Source of the DNA: a virus
DNA: 64,000 nucleotides
Reading direction: 5' to 3' (one strand)
IMG/VR virus record: IMGVR_UViG_3300042922_000152
Coordinates: 3,831-67,830 of that record
The number at the start of each line of letters is the position of its first letter. The stretch's first letter is position 1. This document shows positions 2,680-61,597 of the stretch, one piece after another. The position numbers and the translations under genes are program-made. The notes beneath the pieces were generated by a model, which saw only the letters and a program-made list of their open reading frames with translations, was not told the origin of the DNA and did no database searches.

Positions 2680-3627
2680 ATGCCTACTAACCAGCAAATT
2701 ATCGAAAAAGCAGCAATGATGCTGTCTGACCTGTCCACCGGCGGTAAAATGAATGACACTCAGTTTAACACCTTTTACCGCAAGGTGATTGACAGCCCGA
2801 CTATCCTGCGGGATTGCCGTACTGTTGTAATGCCTATCGACAGCATGAAGATTGAGAAGATCGGCTTCGGTACTCGCATTCTGCGTCCCGGTGTTGAAGG
2901 CGTAGCGCTGCTGGACAATCAACTCAGCAAGCCTACTACTTCCACCATCACGCTGAACGCGAAGGAAGTTATCGCGGAAGTTAACATCACTTACGATACC
3001 CTGGAAAACAACATTGAGGGTGACCGTTTGTATGACACCATCATGAACATGATTGCAGAGCGCGTGTCTCTTGACCTGGAAGAGCTTATCCTGAACGGCG
3101 ATACCTCTCTTTCTGCGACTGACCCGTATCTGGCAATTCTGAACGGCCTGCGTAAGAAGGCTACTTCCCACGTGGTTGACTACGCCAACGCAGACCTGAC
3201 CAAGACCTTGTTCAAGAAGCTGTACAATGCTGTGCCGACGAAGTACATTCGTAACCCCGGCGACTGGCGTTTCTACGTGTCCTACAGCAATGAGCTGGAG
3301 TGGAAGGACACTATTGCTAATCGTCAAACAGCTTTGGGTGACCAAGGCGTTACCTCTGCTAACGTGCCTACTGCATATGGCGTACCTGTTCGCGGTATTG
3401 CTATGCTGCAACCGTACACGTCTAACAGCGTTGACGTGAATGATGGTTTCTTCACTCACCCGAAGAACATCCTGACAGGTATCAGCCGGAACATTCGGGT
3501 TGAGGTTGACAAGGACATCCGCGCCCGGAAGTTCATCATCGTTGTTACTGCCAAGATTGACACTCAATTTGAAGAAGAAGACGCTGTGGCTAAGGCCATC
3601 AAGATCAAGAACACAATTTCCGGCTAA
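2680..3627 (+). CDS. xkdG: Major capsid protein (XkdG-like)
   Basis: KIEKIGFGTRIL, LENNIEG, THPKNI motifs; follows protease; strong SD. Confidence 0.9.
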   Translation: MPTNQQIIEKAAMMLSDLSTGGKMNDTQFNTFYRKVIDSPTILRDCRTVVMPIDSMKIEKIGFGTRILRPGVEGVALLDNQLSKPTTSTITLNAKEVIAEVNITYDTLENNIEGDRLYDTIMNMIAERVSLDLEELILNGDTSLSATDPYLAILNGLRKKATSHVVDYANADLTKTLFKKLYNAVPTKYIRNPGDWRFYVSYSNELEWKDTIANRQTALGDQGVTSANVPTAYGVPVRGIAMLQPYTSNSVDVNDGFFTHPKNILTGISRNIRVEVDKDIRARKFIIVVTAKIDTQFEEEDAVAKAIKIKNTISG

Positions 3628-3711: not shown

Positions 3712-4041
3712 ATGGCAAAGTTTGCAAGCCTGATTGTTGGTCAGACTTATGACGTGATGGGCATTCGCTTTACTGCGAACAACCCGATTGAGGTAGACGA
3801 GGCGCTTGCTGACTACCTCGAAGATAACGAACAGTTCGAAATCACTTCCGGCAAAGCTCCTTCCAAGGAGAAAGCAAAGGGCAAAGGCAAGGACGCTGCA
3901 AAGGCTGAAGTGAAAGCTGATGCTGATGCAGACGAAGAACTTGCGCGCCTTCAGGCTATTGCTGCTACCTTGGAACTGGAAACCGAAGGCCTGAGCGTTG
4001 ACGAAATCAAAGCCCTGATTGAAAAGGCTGAGAACGAGTAA
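3712..4041 (+). CDS. YqbF-like head-associated protein
   Basis: GQTYDVMGIRF...LADYLEDNEQFEI N-terminal domain; position after capsid. Confidence 0.6.
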   Translation: MAKFASLIVGQTYDVMGIRFTANNPIEVDEALADYLEDNEQFEITSGKAPSKEKAKGKGKDAAKAEVKADADADEELARLQAIAATLELETEGLSVDEIKALIEKAENE

Positions 4042-54484: not shown

Positions 54485-55335
54485 CAAAGGCGCAGGAGTT
54501 TCGAACACTGTTGCTGCAAAAAGTCGAAGCTATTACGAAGGAGCATAAAGACCTGGCTTTGTTGTTCAGCGGGGGAACAGATTCGAGCCTGATTCTGTTC
54601 TGTCTCCTCGAACTTGGTATAAAGCCTGTATGCTACACCTTTGGCGTCGAAGGCTACAGGTCAAGAGACGTTATAGTCTCTCAGCAGCTTGCACAGCACT
54701 TTGGCGTTAAGCAGCAGCTTATCATGCTGAAGCCTGATGTCCAAACGCTTGAGCGAGACGTGCGGCAGATCATACGCTATGCAAAGACCTCACGCAAAAC
54801 TGTTGTGCAATGCCTTCACCCAATCAAGTATGTAATGCAGGTAGTGAAGGAGCCTGTATTGCTGAATGGTCTTAACGCTGACTCACTCTATGGAACAAGT
54901 CGGAAAATCTGCATTGAAGGCAAGGACGACAAGGAAGCCTTTGACAGGCTGCGGTACGCTGAAATGTATGACCCGGAACTGTCCGACTTTTATATCAAGC
55001 GATACGTGGAGAGTCATGGTATAGTGTCGATTGACCCGTATCGTGACAAGGAAATAGAGGACTTCTTTCTCCCATTCACATGGCGAGAAGTGAATGAGCC
55101 TAAAGAGAAGCAGATTGCTGTAGACGCCTTTCAGGATTACTTCGGCGCGTTCGACTTTTACAGGCGCTCCGCGTCCTACCAGATTGAAAGCAAGCTGCGT
55201 GAATATCATGACTTGCTGCTTGCACAGCCTCACTTGAACCTCAAAGGCTGGAAGATTGTTAAGCCCATTTATGACCTGATTTACTCGCAAGAAGTTCTTC
55301 AGGCAGGCAAACCCAAGCAGCGGCGATTATTTTAG
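54481..55335 (+). CDS. Asparagine-synthase-like ATP-dependent amide ligase (no glutaminase domain)
   Basis: PP-loop LFSGGTDS; NGLNADSLYG; C-terminal QRRLF. Confidence 0.8.
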   Translation: MTKAQEFRTLLLQKVEAITKEHKDLALLFSGGTDSSLILFCLLELGIKPVCYTFGVEGYRSRDVIVSQQLAQHFGVKQQLIMLKPDVQTLERDVRQIIRYAKTSRKTVVQCLHPIKYVMQVVKEPVLLNGLNADSLYGTSRKICIEGKDDKEAFDRLRYAEMYDPELSDFYIKRYVESHGIVSIDPYRDKEIEDFFLPFTWREVNEPKEKQIAVDAFQDYFGAFDFYRRSASYQIESKLREYHDLLLAQPHLNLKGWKIVKPIYDLIYSQEVLQAGKPKQRRLF

Positions 55336-55352
55336 AAAGGAGGCTTGCAGCT

Positions 55353-55787
55353 ATGGGAGATATGGCGGATTACTATCTTGATCTGGCGATGAACGCTTAC
55401 GGTCTTGACGTAAACGACGAATGGCAAGGACGCTCATACAGCAGAAAGCATAAGACAAGGACGCACTACACGCAGTATCGAAAGCCTGAAAAGAGTAATA
55501 AGCCCACGGTACAATTTCTCAAATTGCGGGATAATCCTAAGCTCTGGATAAACGCAGAAGGTGACATTATTCACATTTACGACATGGACAGCAAACACCT
55601 GTTCAACTGCGTGAGACTTATTGAACGGCGTGAGCAAGAGCAGAAAGGAAATCCTCCTCCTGTATATGCGGAAATGATTAAGGAGCTGGTGAAGCGCGGC
55701 GTCATCACAGAACGCTATCAGCAGCAATCCTACATGAGAAAAAGCTTGAATGTGGAGGTAAACCTAAATGCGATTTACAATGACTGA
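55353..55787 (+). CDS. Hypothetical phage protein
   Basis: MGDMADYY; W...G..I.I.DM...HL.N. Confidence 0.6.
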   Translation: MGDMADYYLDLAMNAYGLDVNDEWQGRSYSRKHKTRTHYTQYRKPEKSNKPTVQFLKLRDNPKLWINAEGDIIHIYDMDSKHLFNCVRLIERREQEQKGNPPPVYAEMIKELVKRGVITERYQQQSYMRKSLNVEVNLNAIYND

Positions 55788-56796
55788 TTTATTTTGTGGC
55801 TCTGGTATAGGTGCGATAGGTTTTCTCGCAGCAGGTTTTGATATTAACTATGCTCTTGATTTTAATGAATATGCGGTGAATACTTACAACCTGAATCACG
55901 CTGGTAAACACGCATTCAAGGCTGATGTGCGCGAGCTTGTATCAAGTGACCTGCCTGATAATGACATTATCTCGGGAGGTTTTCCTTGTACCCCCTTTTC
56001 ACTCGGAGGCAGCAACAGAGGCGAGAATGACGAGCGCCTTGGCAATCTTGGTTATCACTTCTTCAGGATGATACAGGTCAAGAAGCCTATGGCCTTCATC
56101 GTTGAGAATGTCGAAGGCCTGACGAATGGGCGACACGTAAGATTCTTTCACTCGCTCATTGGTTGGCTTGAAAGTGCTGGCTACAATGTCGCTTTTCGTG
56201 TCGTCGATTGTTGGGACTATGGCGTACCACAGACACGAAATCGTGTGTTTATCGTAGGTATTCGCAAAGACCTTGGCAAGCATTTTGTGTTCCCTGAAGT
56301 GCTGCCTATTCATGAACGTCCTACGATGCGTCAAGCGATATCTGACCTTCCTTTTCATCCTGAAGGCAGTAACATCCGCAATCATGTACGCTTTGTGCGT
56401 GGCTTCTCCTCGCGTTCTGCAATGATGAACAGGCAGCGCACATGGGACGAACCATCGTATACCATAGTCAGCAATCCTCGTCACCTTCCTTTGCATCCTG
56501 AGCCAGCAGGCTACGACTTCAGGCACAGAAGCATTGAGCAGATACATGAGGACGAGAAGAACCATATTATTCGCAGGCTTACAGTTAGAGAATGTCTGCG
56601 CCTTCAGTCTGTACCTGATTGGTACTACTTCCCCGATATACCTGGGCGCAAGCTGAACGGCATCCTTGAGAAGCAGCATGAACGCTGTTCCGGTATTCCT
56701 CCCATCGTTGCTGAAAAGCTTGGTAAGCGCCTGATTGACACACTGACAGGCGACTTTCAAGAACCGCCTCGACAGAAAAAACTTTTCTCCATTTAA
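55768..56796 (+). CDS. DNA C5-cytosine methyltransferase homologue with atypical motif X
   Basis: DLFCGSG, GGFPC, ENV, QTRNR, RRLTVREC.RLQ; motif X reads HERCSGIPP. Confidence 0.9.
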   Translation: MRFTMTDLFCGSGIGAIGFLAAGFDINYALDFNEYAVNTYNLNHAGKHAFKADVRELVSSDLPDNDIISGGFPCTPFSLGGSNRGENDERLGNLGYHFFRMIQVKKPMAFIVENVEGLTNGRHVRFFHSLIGWLESAGYNVAFRVVDCWDYGVPQTRNRVFIVGIRKDLGKHFVFPEVLPIHERPTMRQAISDLPFHPEGSNIRNHVRFVRGFSSRSAMMNRQRTWDEPSYTIVSNPRHLPLHPEPAGYDFRHRSIEQIHEDEKNHIIRRLTVRECLRLQSVPDWYYFPDIPGRKLNGILEKQHERCSGIPPIVAEKLGKRLIDTLTGDFQEPPRQKKLFSI

Positions 56797-56833
56797 GACT
56801 TGCTTAAAAAGCAAGTCTTTTTTCTTATATAAC
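56795..56833 (+). promoter_or_regulatory. Terminator-promoter cassette
   Basis: AAGACTTGCT/AGCAAGTCTT hairpin, TTAAAA, N16, TATATAAC. Confidence 0.75.
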
Positions 56834-56863
56834 GAGTATCAGACAAGAAAGGAAGTAGAAAGT

Positions 56864-57400
56864 ATGGACGTAAGATTTCAAGTAACTACTGTTGTTGGTG
56901 AAACTCGCAAGGAAATTGACTTTTCGCTGGATCGGGCAGATGAAGTGCAGAAGTGGGCGTTAATCTGCGGCATGTTCGAAGTTCTTGGCGTGAACGTGCC
57001 TGAAGTGTTTACGACGTATGAAAGGATTGGTAAGGCGTACAAGGACTTCTTTGACCAAGTTAGACCTGAAGAACCTAAAGTTATCACTGTTGAGGCAAGC
57101 GCCGTTACAAACGTGCCTATAATGACCTCGCCACCTGTCAAACACATGCATCACAGCATCAGTCAACATGATATAGACGCGCTCAAATATGCTATGCAAG
57201 GCGGCGAAGTGACATACAAGTGCCGCGTATTCTGTGACTGTGTATCTTACTCACAAGTTACATACATTGCACAACACACCAAGAGCGTTAACTGTCCTTC
57301 ATGTGGTAAAAAGCTTCGCGTCTATCAGACGATGGACAAGTTCCTTGAGCCTGACAAATTCGGCAATTATTTCAGGGCAAAGCCTGCAATTACTGATTAA
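56864..57400 (+). CDS. Hypothetical zinc-ribbon protein
   Basis: YKCRVFCDC...CPSC...DKFGNYF. Confidence 0.6.
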   Translation: MDVRFQVTTVVGETRKEIDFSLDRADEVQKWALICGMFEVLGVNVPEVFTTYERIGKAYKDFFDQVRPEEPKVITVEASAVTNVPIMTSPPVKHMHHSISQHDIDALKYAMQGGEVTYKCRVFCDCVSYSQVTYIAQHTKSVNCPSCGKKLRVYQTMDKFLEPDKFGNYFRAKPAITD

Positions 57401-57414
57401 AGGAGGAATGACAA

Positions 57415-57537
57415 ATGCGTTGGGTATTTCATCAGTCTCATGGACGTATTTACGCCGTATCTGTGTATGCGCGTAAGGACGCCTTGCCGGAGTACATGAC
57501 ACTCGAAGAGTTTCGCGCCTTCAAGCGCGGCTCCTGA
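57415..57537 (+). CDS. Small hypothetical protein (40 aa)
   Basis: SD AGGAGG; MRWVFHQSHGRIYAV. Confidence 0.4.
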   Translation: MRWVFHQSHGRIYAVSVYARKDALPEYMTLEEFRAFKRGS

Positions 57538-57554
57538 AAAGGTGGTGACAGATA

Positions 57555-57749
57555 ATGTTGGTATTATCGTGTGAAGTTTGTACATCCCCGCTCACTTTAG
57601 AACAAGGTACGGAGCGTGACCTGCTCAAAGCTGCCAACATCATCTGTCCTGTCTGTCAGCAGCGCTCGCCTATTCCGAACAGCCTGAAAGCCTTCATCAA
57701 GAAAAACTATCGTGTACCAAGAAAGGTGGAAAAAGATGGGTCCGAGTGA
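57555..57749 (+). CDS. Small zinc-ribbon protein
   Basis: CEVC...CPVC. Confidence 0.55.
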   Translation: MLVLSCEVCTSPLTLEQGTERDLLKAANIICPVCQQRSPIPNSLKAFIKKNYRVPRKVEKDGSE

Positions 57750-58149
57750 ACTTCCTGCAAGTCAGTTGTCTGACGCTGAACTCATTGCCGAGTTCGAACT
57801 CGCTTGTCGCGGTGGTGATCATGAATTTGCTCCCGAATATCGCGCTGAACTCTCTGAGCGCCTTTCTAAGCGCGCTTATGACGCTGACCTGTATCAGCAG
57901 CTTAAAGAGGCGCCCCTGTACGCAGCAGTCATTCAAAGGCTTGTAGCGCAGCAGGAAAAAGGTATCAAGAAGTACGGTGCGCTGCTCAGTGGGAAGACCT
58001 ATTCCGTAGACGAGTATATCGAACACGTACAGCAGGAACTCACTGACGCGCTCGTGTACTTCGAAGGCCTGAAGCAGCAGCTTGAACAGCTTAATAGCAG
58101 CAGACTTCCAGTGTATTTACAGTTTCCTAATTGGGTTCCGAATGATTGA
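57736..58149 (+). CDS. All-alpha NTP-pyrophosphatase-like phage protein
   Basis: QQEKGIKKYG...EHVQQELTDALVY. Confidence 0.55.
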   Translation: MGPSELPASQLSDAELIAEFELACRGGDHEFAPEYRAELSERLSKRAYDADLYQQLKEAPLYAAVIQRLVAQQEKGIKKYGALLSGKTYSVDEYIEHVQQELTDALVYFEGLKQQLEQLNSSRLPVYLQFPNWVPND

Positions 58150-58351
58150 CGAGGACAATCCTGCCCCGCGGTACAAGCTGAAGACCTTTCAACGTATACG
58201 CCACACAAAGAACTCACGCCTACCTCATGCCTGCGTGTACTGCCTTCAGGTCATTCCTTCAGGCTCGAACCTCATAGAAGTATCCGGCAAGAGCCTGAAG
58301 TTTTATTATTACTATGTATGTCGTGCATGTTGGGAGGAGGACGACATGTGA
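58142..58351 (+). CDS. Small zinc-finger protein
   Basis: HACVYC...CRAC. Confidence 0.5.
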   Translation: MIDEDNPAPRYKLKTFQRIRHTKNSRLPHACVYCLQVIPSGSNLIEVSGKSLKFYYYYVCRACWEEDDM

Positions 58352-58539
58352 GGTTTACACATCTGCATGGCCTGTCAGTAACCGAGTGCTTAGAGGTAGA
58401 GCAGCGCATTATAGAACTTATCCATAAGAAGCCGAAACGTAAGGTATTCTATTTTCAGCACAAGACGCACAAGCTCTGCTGCTTTTCCGTAGGTGTGCAG
58501 CTTTGGGAAGTCGTGAAAGACGTATGGGAAGACTACTAA
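58348..58539 (+). CDS. Hypothetical protein
   Basis: GTG start overlapping stop; SD. Confidence 0.45.
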   Translation: MRFTHLHGLSVTECLEVEQRIIELIHKKPKRKVFYFQHKTHKLCCFSVGVQLWEVVKDVWEDY

Positions 58540-58551
58540 GGAGGAATCAAC

Positions 58552-58845
58552 ATGGAAGAACAACAAGGTCAAACTGAAGTCAAGAAGGAAGTTGTCGCGC
58601 TGCGTCCTGAAGTCGCATGGTTCGCTGAACAGATGGAACTCACGCTGCGCAAGAATGACGCCAAAGGCGGTTGGGTGTTCACTGACAATCAGTATCTCAC
58701 GAACAAAATTCAGGAACACGCCGAGAAGATCGGCCTGACGCTTGAAGGAGGATTTCCTTCAGCAGTAATCCTTGAGTACGCTGTACACGCTGCGAATTAT
58801 GCAATGATGGTAGGCGACAACGTAGCCGGACCGTACACAAGATAA
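58552..58845 (+). CDS. Phage protein, possible all-alpha NTP-pyrophosphatase-like fold
   Basis: WFAEQME..LRKND.KGGW...ANYAMM. Confidence 0.55.
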   Translation: MEEQQGQTEVKKEVVALRPEVAWFAEQMELTLRKNDAKGGWVFTDNQYLTNKIQEHAEKIGLTLEGGFPSAVILEYAVHAANYAMMVGDNVAGPYTR

Positions 58846-58850
58846 TAATG

Positions 58851-58876
58851 AAGCGCCTCAAAAAAGAGGCGCTTTT
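58851..58876 (+). terminator. Intrinsic terminator
   Basis: AAGCGCCTC-AAAAAA-GAGGCGCTT + T. Confidence 0.8.
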
Positions 58877-58890
58877 CTTCAAGAATTTTC

Positions 58891-58920
58891 TTGACATGTA
58901 AGTGTCAAAAATGATATATT
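58891..58920 (+). promoter_or_regulatory. sigmaA promoter whose -35 is half of a TTGACA-N6-TGTCAA palindrome
   Basis: TTGACA-N18-TATATT with TG extension. Confidence 0.75.
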
Positions 58921-58958
58921 ATATACATAAGGAACACACAAACGGAGGCGATTCACAA

Positions 58959-59141
58959 ATGACAAAAGCTTTTGAAAATATAGATGGTTTATTCGCTACA
59001 GCAAAGCAGCTAACTAATGAAATTTACGATTATGCTGAAGCCAATAACACATTAGAGTATGTAAAAGAAGCGGAGTCTACAGAAGGAATTTTGTGTAACG
59101 TGTACGCTGTAAACGGCGAGTATTACTATTCATTAGCATAA
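58959..59141 (+). CDS. Small acidic protein (60 aa)
   Basis: SD GGAGG; first gene after promoter. Confidence 0.6.
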   Translation: MTKAFENIDGLFATAKQLTNEIYDYAEANNTLEYVKEAESTEGILCNVYAVNGEYYYSLA

Positions 59142-59160
59142 CAAAAGGAGCGGATAAACA

Positions 59161-59328
59161 ATGAACCTGTACTACATCACTTTCAAACTCGGAAGCCGGA
59201 GCATTAAAGTCACTCAACGGGCAATGAACAAGCAAGCAGCGATAGTGGCAGCAAAAGGCAAGTTGACTTGGAGAGAGCGTGACCGCATCACTGACATTGA
59301 GGTCATTGAAGACAAAAACAACATATAA
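59161..59328 (+). CDS. Small hypothetical protein (55 aa)
   Basis: SD AAGGAG; MNLYYITFKLG. Confidence 0.55.
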   Translation: MNLYYITFKLGSRSIKVTQRAMNKQAAIVAAKGKLTWRERDRITDIEVIEDKNNI

Positions 59329-59340
59329 GGCCTTCGGGCC

Positions 59341-59394
59341 TCAAGTAATGCAGCCTACGGCGGTTCCAAGCCCGCGCAAATGCAGAGGACTTGA
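59341..59394 (+). ncRNA. Twister self-cleaving ribozyme (P1 type)
   Basis: P1 UCAAG/CUUGA, UAA, P2 UGC/GCA, AGCC, P4 GCGG/CCGC, loop UUCCAAGC, GAGG. Confidence 0.85.
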
Positions 59395-59417
59395 AAATAC
59401 AAAGGAGGAATTAACAT

Positions 59418-60125
59418 ATGACAACAGAAGTGATGACCTCGGACCTGCAAGTGCAAGGAACCCCTGAAGAGCAGCGCGTTTTCAACTCCGACGTGACAAT
59501 TTCAGAACTGAACAGAGCTTACAGGCTGTTCAATGAACACATCTTCAATAACTACCTCGAAGACGCTTATATCATCGTCACAAGCACAGCGAAGCAGAAG
59601 GCAAATGGTTACTTCACTGTACAGAAGGTGTGGACAGACGTTGAGAATAAGATTGAACGTCACGAAATCGGTATCGGCGCTGAGTACATGAACAGACCTT
59701 TGCTCGAAATCATGAGAACACTGTTGCATGAAATGGTTCACCTGTACTGCGAGAGCAATGAAATTCAGGATACATCCAGGCAGAATCGTTATCATAACAA
59801 GAAGTTCAAGAAGGCCTGCGAGGAAAACGGTATGTTCTATCCTGAAGGCTTCGTACCTGACGACAAGTACGGATGGTCAGCAGCGCAGCTTACACCCGAG
59901 ACTGTTGAACTCGTTAAATCCTGGGAGATCAATGAGGAGGCGTTCAAGCTGTACCGCAAGCGCTTCGACACAGCGCCTAAAGGTGACGACGAGGAAGAGA
60001 AGAAGCCGCGCGTCCTGTTCAACATCAAGCACATGTGCCCCAAGTGCTTCGCAGAGTTCAAAGCGCCTGCGCCTCTCAACGTGACATGCAACGAGTGTGA
60101 AGAGGAATATCTGGTGATGGAATGA
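59418..60125 (+). CDS. SprT-like zinc metalloprotease
   Basis: LLHEMVHL, YHNKKFK, C-terminal CxxC pairs. Confidence 0.9.
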   Translation: MTTEVMTSDLQVQGTPEEQRVFNSDVTISELNRAYRLFNEHIFNNYLEDAYIIVTSTAKQKANGYFTVQKVWTDVENKIERHEIGIGAEYMNRPLLEIMRTLLHEMVHLYCESNEIQDTSRQNRYHNKKFKKACEENGMFYPEGFVPDDKYGWSAAQLTPETVELVKSWEINEEAFKLYRKRFDTAPKGDDEEEKKPRVLFNIKHMCPKCFAEFKAPAPLNVTCNECEEEYLVME

Positions 60126-60136
60126 CAACAAAAATA

Positions 60137-60161
60137 AGGCCTCCTTCTCAGGAGGCCTTTT
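60137..60161. terminator. Bidirectional terminator
   Basis: AAGGCCTCCT/AGGAGGCCTT between convergent genes. Confidence 0.75.
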
Positions 60162-60162
60162 C

Positions 60163-60369
60163 TTATGCTTTATAAGTCCATATGCGCTCAATAGGAACCT
60201 TTAATGCGGATGAAAGTATGAAGGCTGTTTCTAACGAAGGACTCTGTACCTTATTGTTGGCTAATCTGTTGATTGTCTCTCGTGACAGTCCGGACAATTT
60301 TGCAAGTTCAATCTGATCAACGTTAAGCTCAACCATGACGAGCTTCAGTTTGCATTCGAGCATTATCAT
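60163..60369 (-). CDS. Xre/Cro-family HTH regulator
   Basis: QIELAKLSGLSRETINRL..PSLETAF.L..AL; SD on minus strand. Confidence 0.9.
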   Translation of the reverse strand: MIMLECKLKLVMVELNVDQIELAKLSGLSRETINRLANNKVQSPSLETAFILSSALKVPIERIWTYKA

Positions 60370-60446
60370 TCACCCCCTTTGTTGGAGAGATACACACTGT
60401 CACGAGAGCGCTACAAAACGTCGCGGAATTTGTGTGACGTGGAATG

Positions 60447-60474
60447 CACATAAGTGATTTCCGATGCATATGAT
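60447..60474 (+). promoter_or_regulatory. Putative sigmaK-type promoter
   Basis: CACA-N16-CATATGAT. Confidence 0.55.
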
Positions 60475-60499
60475 GTATCAAGAGAGGAGACAAAGACAA

Positions 60500-60757
60500 A
60501 TGAGCAGCGACAGCAAGAGCAAGGAAGGTACAGAGGAGCAAAACGTTGGCGCGGCCTGCTCCTTCTGCAAATGTGACAGTTTTGAAAATTCTCTTTTACT
60601 TCATCGTATTGAAGACGGCTTGTATTTATGTCAACAATGTTCTGACAATTTAAAAAAAGGATGGGATGACGGATGCTTACTATTAACATACGACTTGCTG
60701 AAATTTGGGAATTACAACGGAAGCGTGACCTCACCGAAGCCGAGGAACTCGAACTGA
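60500..60757 (+). CDS. ClpX-type C4 zinc-finger protein
   Basis: CSFC...LYLCQQC. Confidence 0.55.
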   Translation: MSSDSKSKEGTEEQNVGAACSFCKCDSFENSLLLHRIEDGLYLCQQCSDNLKKGWDDGCLLLTYDLLKFGNYNGSVTSPKPRNSN

Positions 60758-60915
60758 AACAATGCCTTCAGGCTAATGCTTCATATGTGCGCAAGCGCTC
60801 TGAGTTCCTGAATTGGATGTATGTCGCCTCTCTTACAAAGGACATCGAAGAGGAAGCGAAGTATGCCGCTGAAATTATCAAGCTTGATATGAAGTATACA
60901 GCAAGTGTCGTCTGA
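60673..60915 (+). CDS. Small helical hypothetical protein
   Basis: RLAEIW..RDLTEAE..EL..CL.AN. Confidence 0.6.
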   Translation: MLTINIRLAEIWELQRKRDLTEAEELELKQCLQANASYVRKRSEFLNWMYVASLTKDIEEEAKYAAEIIKLDMKYTASVV

Positions 60916-60967
60916 GGTCATCAGGAAATAATTGACGCTCTTTTGTCAAAAAAGTTATTCCTCCCTG

Positions 60968-60996
60968 TTGCATTAAAACTTATCATGTAGTATACT
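60968..60996 (+). promoter_or_regulatory. sigmaA-type promoter
   Basis: TTGCAT-N17-TATACT. Confidence 0.7.
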
Positions 60997-61040
60997 ATAT
61001 ATAAAGAGGTTAAGCATAAACGACAGGGAGGAATTTTAAA

Positions 61041-61280
61041 ATGATCAACCTTCAAAAGAAGACTCTTATCGTCGGTGGTACTTACAAGGTCAACAAGGAC
61101 AGCAAGCTCAAAGTGCGCAACAGCAACGTGGCAGAACTCAAGGCAGGCGAAACCTTCAAGCTTCATTACTACGGCATTCCTGTTCTCGTGATGAACGGCG
61201 CAGACGAGGAGCGCTATTGTTCCTTGAACTGCCTGACAAAGCTGCACGAGGCGGGCGCAATCGAAGAAATCCTTCATTAA
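61041..61280 (+). CDS. Hypothetical protein
   Basis: Strong SD after promoter. Confidence 0.6.
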   Translation: MINLQKKTLIVGGTYKVNKDSKLKVRNSNVAELKAGETFKLHYYGIPVLVMNGADEERYCSLNCLTKLHEAGAIEEILH

Positions 61281-61333
61281 TCAAACTGGCTGCGCTTGAT
61301 CAATCAGGCGCAGCCTGAAAGGAGGCAGCGTAC

Positions 61334-61597
61334 TTGGCTAAAATATACCACTATCTGCGCATTATCAAGAAGCTCGACGACATCAGCTACAAAGGTCATA
61401 AGCTCACAGCCAATCAGCGCAGGCTCTATGCAAGGCTTGACAACTGGCGTGACAGAGATTATTGGCGCAAGCAGGAAGAGAAGGCGCGCAAATACAGCAA
61501 GCTCATTGACACATTCACGCTCGGCGAACCTTCACCTGTAGCACCGAAAGGCATTGTAAGTTCTGTTATGCTCAAGAATCATTCTTGTGACACATAG
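61334..61597 (+). CDS. Basic hypothetical protein
   Basis: TTG start with SD AGGAGG. Confidence 0.55.
   Translation: MAKIYHYLRIIKKLDDISYKGHKLTANQRRLYARLDNWRDRDYWRKQEEKARKYSKLIDTFTLGEPSPVAPKGIVSSVMLKNHSCDT

Follow-up and report, generated by a model that had tools for sequence, protein, structure and literature searches.

RNase III cuts between the genes of the early message of bacteriophage T7, and RiboJ is a synthetic ribozyme insulator; twister ribozymes in bacterial messenger RNAs (mRNAs) were reportedly treated by Felletti et al. in 2017. Twisters have been suggested to cut polycistronic mRNAs into pieces of different stability (PMC6765202, excerpt). Ribozymes that flank prophage genes may process long phage transcripts, and three hammerhead arrays were cleaved during in vitro transcription (Perreault et al. 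2011, PMC3088659, excerpt). The biological role of bacterial and phage twisters is still called speculative (excerpts of PMC5408937 and PMC6765202). Here we analyse a stretch of 64,000 nucleotides (positions 3,831 to 67,830 of IMG/VR virus record IMGVR_UViG_3300042922_000152, hereafter the window) from an uncultured 68-kb tailed soil phage, in which a twister ribozyme is predicted in the spacer between the genes orfB and sprT of a three-gene unit of about 1.25 kb. Judging from the sequence, we put the probability that this twister acts as an intercistronic processing site at roughly 75%.

As defined in the excerpted text of PMC5408937, the twister class of Roth et al. (2014) has the essential stems P1, P2 and P4, the optional stems P0, P3 and P5, and two pseudoknots, T1 joining loop L4 to the strand 3′ of P2 and T2 joining loop L1 to L4. 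About ten strongly conserved nucleotides lie in L1 and L4, and the scissile bond links a less conserved U next to P1 to a conserved A. Of the annotated twisters, 78% possess P3; cleavage can proceed without P1, and the construct from Oryza sativa is of the basic P1 type, without P3 and P5.

A P3-less twister in the orfB-sprT spacer

The earlier note, an interpretation of this DNA from its letters, had described a twister layout with a hairpin abutting it; the letters of 59328-59410 match that reading exactly, the arrangement was confirmed from the sequence and the observation is real. The ribozyme spans 59341-59394 (54 nt) on the plus strand, as do all the elements listed in this paragraph. 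P1 is formed by UCAAG (59341-59345) and CUUGA (59390-59394). It is followed by the junction UAA (59346-59348) and by P2, which pairs UGCA (59349-59352) with UGCA (59381-59384). After GCC (59353-59355), a 4-nt linker (59356-59359) replaces P3 and leads into P4 (GCGG, 59360-59363, with CCGC, 59372-59375), whose loop is UUCCAAGC (59364-59371) and which is followed by GCAAA; GAGGA (59385-59389) lies between the 3′ strands of P2 and P1. The pseudoknot complementarity proposed earlier is present in the sequence, UCC (59365-59367) facing GGA (59387-59389) for T1 and GC (59353-59354) facing GC (59370-59371) for T2. The predicted scissile bond, U59346/A59347, agrees at the level of sequence position with the RF03160 alignment and with the twister definition, being the U-A step that adjoins P1 (PMC5408937, excerpt). 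Cleavage at this bond would be expected to leave a 2′,3′-cyclic phosphate on the upstream product and a 5′-hydroxyl (5′-OH) on the downstream one.

Two covariance models support the identification. RF03160, the type-P1 twister family of Rfam, matched 59342-59393 over model positions 1-68 of 68 with 53.4 bits, giving an E-value of 2e-11 for 321 bases and of 4.1e-9 for the 64-kb window. In its alignment, two 8-column deletions fall at P3, and no mismatched or non-standard pair was flagged. The strongly conserved L1 and L4 nucleotides (UAA, GCC, CGGU-CCAAGCCCG, AAA and GAGG) are all matched, with three departures from the upper-case consensus: C to U in loop L4, G to A in GAGGG, and U to C before AAA. 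The first two compensate each other, because they stand on opposite sides of one T1 pair, and the position before AAA is also variable among other phage copies. The second model, R1, is a leave-one-out model built from 24 other phage twisters without P3, with the window excluded. It scored the window twister at 72 bits (rough E 9e-20), its sole match in the window.

The minimum-energy and centroid folds of 83-nt and 211-nt contexts comprised the hairpin, P1, P2 and P4, with 5-6, 4 and 4 pairs in the three stems of the minimum-energy fold. The folding-energy z-scores (-0.69 and -0.70) are unremarkable, as expected for a fold that depends on pseudoknots. We regard 59341-59394 as a real and well-formed twister of basic P1 type, ordinary in its phage setting and very probably competent for cleavage, and we propose that it is constitutively active.

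Covariation among phage twisters

IMG/VR was scanned with one exact 20-letter twister core pattern, which hit at least 112 stretches. The 112 fetched stretches held 120 core matches, 100 with a full type-P1 parse and 20 without, so that 101 parsed cores were available with the window. A filter demanding at least three of the four P2 pairs and at least two P1 pairs retained 87 of these 101 cores, representing 81 unique contexts, the window included. All counts over the 81 contexts or their clusters given below hold among the matches listed. P3 is lacking in 42 of the 81. The same pattern also hit two recurrent coding sequences without the rest of the ribozyme (L051, L076, L093, L100, L104, L108, L113, L115, L125, L128, L131 and L137; also L077, L078 and L122), and these are among the 20 matches lacking a parse; a core match alone is therefore insufficient to call a twister.

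The T1 pair of the window is U-A, unlike the C-G of the consensus; both this pair and the outer P4 pair depart from the consensus by compensating changes. It is U-A in 53 of the 81 contexts, C-G in 27, U-G in 1 and C-A in none. An alignment of 25 distinct copies without P3, that of the window among them, was then scored pair by pair. Its outer P4 pair is A-U in 16 copies, C-G in 7, G-C in 1 (the window) and U-A in 1, and is never unpaired. Over all 19 pairs, 90.9% of the cells pair, as against 76.6% in shuffles and 23-42% with slid partners, and the observed covariation score was reached by none of 500 shuffles. Pairing of P2 and P4 amounts to 99-100% across the 25 copies, whereas T2 is uninformative for covariation because it is invariant.

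The spacer and its transcription unit

The unit is compact. In the spacer a hairpin, AGGCC-UUCG-GGCCU (59328-59341, plus strand; 5 pairs, no U tract), begins on the last base of the orfB stop codon and adjoins P1, sharing U59341 with it; after cleavage, 5 nt would separate this hairpin from the 3′ terminus of the upstream product. The orfB stop codon ends 12 nt before P1 and the sprT ATG (59418) lies 23 nt past it. The Shine-Dalgarno sequence of sprT, GGAGG (59404-59408, plus strand), is placed 10 nt past P1 and 9 nt before the ATG. The earlier figure of about 7 nt for this distance fits the A-rich run into the ribosome site, which begins about 7 nt past P1. The hairpin abutting upstream and the ribosome site following downstream, also claimed earlier, were thus both found in the sequence. 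No promoter-like site was detected between orfB and sprT (59328-59418), so sprT should be transcribed through the ribozyme. The twister accordingly sits on the coding strand, between a stop codon and a ribosome site of one and the same unit, with a stem-loop abutting its 5′ side. If stem P0 of the twister class is a hairpin 5′ of P1, the hairpin seen here would already be a described feature; a literature search on this stem found no paper.

Three other pairings in this region were considered as regulatory devices and rejected. GGAGG 59404-59408 is unpaired in the 83-nt fold, and in longer contexts the minimum-energy folds pair part of it and the centroids do not; masking of the ribosome site was dismissed, as it was not consistent across fold contexts. 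Refolding of the 5′ product, with part of 59297-59304 pairing to 59337-59345, was equalled by 10 of 200 shuffles. Finally, GAGGUCAU (59299-59306), near the end of orfB, is complementary to AUGACCUC (59433-59440), codons 6-8 of sprT, and in the 211-nt fold the resulting 8-pair helix encloses the whole stretch from hairpin through ribozyme to start codon; about 0.3 such matches are estimated by chance in 211 nt.

The boundaries of the unit agree with the single operon proposed in the earlier note, a terminator and a promoter lying upstream and a terminator downstream. A putative intrinsic terminator (58851-58874, plus strand; a 9-pair stem, then TTTCTTC) would end the preceding unit. A putative promoter of the sigma-70/sigma-A type follows at 58891-58920 (plus strand), consisting of TTGACA, 18 nt and TATATT, with TG before the -10 element; its consensus match of 11/12 is the best in 55000-61500. 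The first gene, orfA (58960-59141, plus strand; 60 aa), starts with an ATG after a GGAGG ribosome site. The longer 79-aa frame listed for it (58902-59141) begins at GTG 58902, within the promoter, and gave no Pfam match above cut-off (one sub-threshold DUF5118, E 0.0089) and no PHROG family. The second gene, orfB (59161-59328, plus strand; 55 aa; stop TAA 59326-59328), likewise has no Pfam or PHROG family. The third, sprT (59418-60125, plus strand), encodes an SprT-like zinc metallopeptidase of 235 aa (PF10263, E 6.7e-8; phrog_6361, E 3.9e-24) with an HEMVH motif and a Cys-rich C-terminal segment. A putative bidirectional intrinsic terminator (60136-60159; a 10-pair stem with T tails on both strands) would serve sprT on the plus strand and, on the minus strand, the convergent HTH_3 gene (60163-60369; Pfam). 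A weak Phe_leader match on the minus strand (60130-60236; 29.6 bits, E 0.74) corresponds to this terminator hairpin and not to a leader. The label "early" that the operon had received is a guess.

The promoter is overlapped by a palindrome, as had been noticed before: its -35 element, TTGACA, is half of the inverted repeat TTGACA-N6-TGTCAA (58891-58908). Thirteen copies of this repeat occur in the window at no more than one mismatch, seven of them perfect, against a mean of 0.32 and a maximum of 2 in shuffles. They start at 716, 9204, 14817, 21413, 24192, 31945, 37676, 38174, 43213, 51722, 58891, 60932 and 62874. Most lie within genes, often preceded by T and followed by AA, and a good -10 element was seen only at 58891. 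The repeat has the look of a scattered site that a dimeric protein may bind or recognise.

Recurrence of the layout in other phages

The layout of the window was compared with that of the other phage twisters, using as a control 3830 random positions in the same loci as the 81 contexts. A hairpin with 5 or more pairs, its end falling within -4 to +2 nt of P1, is present in 54 of the 81 contexts (control, 17.0%). A ribosome site with the start of an open reading frame (ORF) of at least 40 aa follows within 40 nt in 49 of them (control, 16.8%), and the stop of an upstream ORF falls within 40 nt in 56 (control, 24.2%). After related contexts had been clustered, the hairpin was found in 34 of 51 clusters, the ribosome site and start in 32, and the upstream stop in 35. 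The layout is not special to the window phage, which provides a clean but ordinary example of it, and these counts put a figure on the regularity of the succession of hairpin, twister and ribosome site.

One 10-member cluster with near-identical contexts (L042, L048, L053, L060, L063, L070, L114, L130, L138 and L140, on contigs of 77-148 kb for eight of them) is a different use of the same ribozyme. Its twister lacks P3 and has no start codon within 40 nt; some 15 nt ahead of P1 there is an inverted repeat, CACGTGG...CCACGTT.

The ORFs that follow 46 phage twisters belong to mixed PHROG families (17 matched, for the most part without known function), among them four Mu Gam-like proteins, two DNA methyltransferases and one exonuclease, with no capsid genes; no preference for a particular downstream function emerged in these 46. 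Pairing of a twister with SprT was not conserved either. We examined 196 loci carrying SprT relatives (36 viral, 80 metagenome and 80 genome), all at no more than 47% identity, and a motif search of their 674 kb gave no twister core in any of the 196. RF03160 found nothing in 35 whole viral records with SprT relatives except a 16-nt fragment of 13.4 bits, taken as chance. Since the downstream genes are mixed and the pairing with SprT is not conserved, the ribozyme behaves as a general punctuation element and not as a regulator of SprT.

The phage and its probable host

PHROG matches place head, tail-sheath and tape-measure genes at 0.4-20 kb of the window. The replication functions at 27-52 kb comprise helicase, primase, DnaB, DNA polymerase and clamp, and beyond them come methyltransferases and small genes; nearly all window genes are on the plus strand. 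A blastn search of 58500-60500 against the phage collection gave no match, and no close relative of the phage was found. The major capsid protein has its closest relatives in phages of Bacillus thuringiensis (63-65% identity), and among genomes SprT finds its best relatives in Bacillus and Neobacillus. The sole sequencing run listed for the stretch is a soil metagenome DNA run, which may be its source. On these grounds the phage probably infects a soil bacterium of the Bacillota, Bacillus-like in character.

Proposed processing and its alternatives

According to the proposed mechanism, the RNA would fold once RNA polymerase has passed 59394 and would cut itself between U59346 and A59347. The orfA-orfB piece would then end with the GC-rich hairpin, 5 nt and a 2′,3′-cyclic phosphate, a poor entry for 3′ exonucleases. 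The sprT piece would start with a 5′-OH adenosine tucked in the remaining ribozyme body (P2, P4, T1 and T2), followed by the 23-nt leader with its unpaired GGAGG, by sprT and by the terminator. The two halves of the operon could thereby meet independent fates, and the 5′ end of sprT would be fixed regardless of the promoter. The data show the sequence, the fold, the family match, the covariation, the position in the unit and the recurrence of the layout; that the RNA is cut in vivo, with any effect on stability or translation, is inferred. Stabilisation of the upstream piece by the hairpin appears reasonably likely, and the enrichment of the abutting hairpin in phage contexts is its best support. 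For the sprT mRNA, a protective or insulating net effect has about an even chance, a destabilising effect is less probable, and a negligible one less probable again.

Several observations weigh against the reading of this twister as an intercistronic processing site. In hosts with RNase J1, a ribozyme-made 5′-OH end is a decay signal (PMC3328962, excerpt; PMC7967978), contrary to a protection of sprT. No RNA run containing the stretch is listed. The default Rfam search of the window at gathering scores reported nothing, the 53.4 bits of the twister not reaching the RF03160 gathering score of 67.2 bits. The total numbers of promoter and terminator consensus matches are not above those of shuffles. 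The covariation count is partly biased, as the filter chose P2 and P1 pairing and the pattern fixed the core, which leaves the T1 pair and the outer P4 pair as the only ones without selection bias; and the 81 contexts, obtained with one exact pattern, are not a random sample of phage twisters. An abutting hairpin is missing from 17 of the 51 clusters, and the layout is therefore common, not universal; the 10-member cluster from large phage contigs has neither this hairpin nor a nearby start.

The most serious rival accepts the same cut and gives it the purpose of lowering the downstream gene: in a Bacillota host the 5′-OH would recruit RNase J1, a 5′-to-3′ exonuclease, and an sprT message of shorter life than the hairpin-capped orfA-orfB message would limit a potentially harmful protease. 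The capsid and SprT relatives speak for it, as they point to Bacillus. In Bacillus subtilis, RNase J1 degrades the 5′-OH product that glmS self-cleavage yields (PMC3328962, excerpt), and when a hammerhead or glmS ribozyme preceded a reporter in Escherichia coli, the reporter was attenuated specifically upon RNase J1 induction (PMC7967978). As the probable host is Bacillus-like and RNase J1 attacks 5′-OH ends, the sprT message may thus be destabilised and not protected, and the benefit of the 5′-OH end for this mRNA that the earlier note implied is doubtful. This account is opposed by the position of the twister directly before a ribosome site and start codon in 32 of the 51 clusters, a decay mark on every gene being an improbable purpose, and by a description of the twister 3′ fragment in which its 5′ end is buried (PMC8782182, excerpt); it also depends on a host deduced from relatives. 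We consider it a minority possibility next to intercistronic processing without such a purpose.

The twister could alternatively be a decayed, inactive relic, with no useful cleavage rate in vivo and the operon expressed as one message. Its score under the Rfam gathering cut-off would fit, and many computationally predicted ribozymes failed to cleave on testing (PMC8782182, excerpt). A relic is nevertheless improbable here, as the strongly conserved positions are all kept, the two T1 departures compensate, and R1, a model of P3-less twisters, gives 72 bits. The shortfall in the RF03160 score is explained by the absence of P3, a stem that is optional in the class definition: none of the 14 other P3-less phage copies examined, in 13 loci (L039, L040, L041, L057, L067, L085, L095, L096, L097, L127, L132, L141 and L144), passes the RF03160 gathering score. 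Three copies bearing P3 exceed it (L065, 73 bits; L101, 70.5; L052, 68.1), and those in L080, L096, L120 and L135 stay under it. We treat the missed cut-off as a limit of the Rfam model, not of the RNA. The search with Rfam twister-P1 that the earlier note had recommended thus gave a match when judged by E-value and none at the default threshold; reading the latter as a refutation would have been wrong, because the default threshold hides the match. The outcome is an annotation gap, since the Rfam twister-P1 cut-off misses the window copy and all 14 other P3-less copies examined.

A third account makes the hairpin a terminator or attenuator for orfA-orfB, with sprT transcribed separately and the twister only trimming its 5′ leader. 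The GC-rich hairpin does come directly after the orfB stop codon, but it lacks a U tract and is terminator-like on the minus strand only, no promoter-like site was found in 59328-59418, and the hairpin touches P1 with U59341 held in common; we judge this account very unlikely.

The idea that sprT sits in a cassette bounded by ribozymes, as part of a mobile or circular-RNA element, recalls phage contigs in which ribozymes cluster or flank genes (L135 and L067), but it is scarcely credible for a record with one ribozyme, with no repeat or second cut site bounding sprT and with a twister core in 0 of the 196 loci holding SprT relatives.

In the virus record of 67,830 bases, whose ends are direct terminal repeats, twister-P1 has no other match, and a search of the window with all Rfam families at E up to 1 added two weak non-ribozyme matches only. 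By comparison, four phage contigs with a twister-P1 have additional ribozymes that reach the Rfam gathering scores, namely seven type-II hammerheads and a RAGATH-28 RNA in L135 (7063-12525, minus strand), three twister-P5 copies and a hammerhead in L067 (1842-4105), a hammerhead in L041 (4061-4131) and a twister-sister in L101 (5163-5234). In L039, a P3-less twister at about 2671-2724 is followed some 20 nt downstream, on the other strand, by a FuFi-1 RNA match (2739-2945, minus strand; 76.8 bits against a gathering score of 59.6).

Intercistronic processing by the twister is thus the reading that we retain, and the earlier interpretation of the locus is partly supported. A bolder idea, to which we give little credence, is that the succession of stop codon, hairpin, twister and ribosome site forms a portable, protein-independent punctuation module that can be dropped between any genes, with the 5′-OH serving as an RNase J1 timer. 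If the timer were true, the SprT-like message would be made in step with orfA-orfB and removed faster, the hairpin-capped upstream message would persist, and this single-ribozyme 1.25-kb unit would be a minimal natural system for measuring phage twister action. The locus adds no new principle. It offers a very simple case, in which about 1.25 kb hold a single promoter, three genes, a single ribozyme and a single terminator, and the unit could be moved into Bacillus subtilis to measure the effects of cleavage, hairpin and RNase J1.

Comparison with known systems

Like the type-P1 twisters of RF03160, the window ribozyme has P1, P2, P4, T1 and T2, a U-A scissile step by P1 and, in L1 and L4, the conserved nucleotides; it differs in lacking P3, in its U-A form of one T1 pair and in a score under the gathering cut-off (53.4 versus 67.2 bits). 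The absence of P3 and P5 is shared with the Oryza sativa construct. Counted without alignment from the first P1 base, the window has A at position 7 and G at position 45, the numbers of the acid and base residues of the O. sativa ribozyme in Table 1 of PMC5408937 (excerpt). The O. sativa twister is found in a plant, and that of the window in a phage.

As for the prophage hammerheads and the twisters of bacterial mRNAs, the ribozyme is intergenic, lies on the coding strand and has small phage genes around it, their functions mixed or unknown, and the role proposed is to cut long messages into pieces that differ in stability. Unlike the hammerhead arrays (PMC3088659, excerpt), the window has a single ribozyme in a three-gene unit, and its cleavage is predicted.

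The fate envisaged for the sprT message resembles that of glmS mRNA in B. subtilis, where a leader ribozyme leaves a 5′-OH on the coding part (Collins et al. 2007, summarised in PMC3328962, excerpt), and the likely host lineage has RNase J1. The glmS ribozyme, however, needs a metabolite cofactor and works as a feedback switch, whereas the window twister would be ligand-free, with no sensor domain visible.

A parallel in function is offered by the RNase III sites of T7 and the RiboJ insulator, with which the predicted arrangement shares an intercistronic cut, a stem at the new 3′ end and a defined 5′ leader for the next gene. In contrast to the T7 sites, the window message would be cut by the RNA itself without a host enzyme, and its new ends would be a cyclic phosphate and a 5′-OH where RNase III leaves a 3′-OH and a 5′-phosphate.

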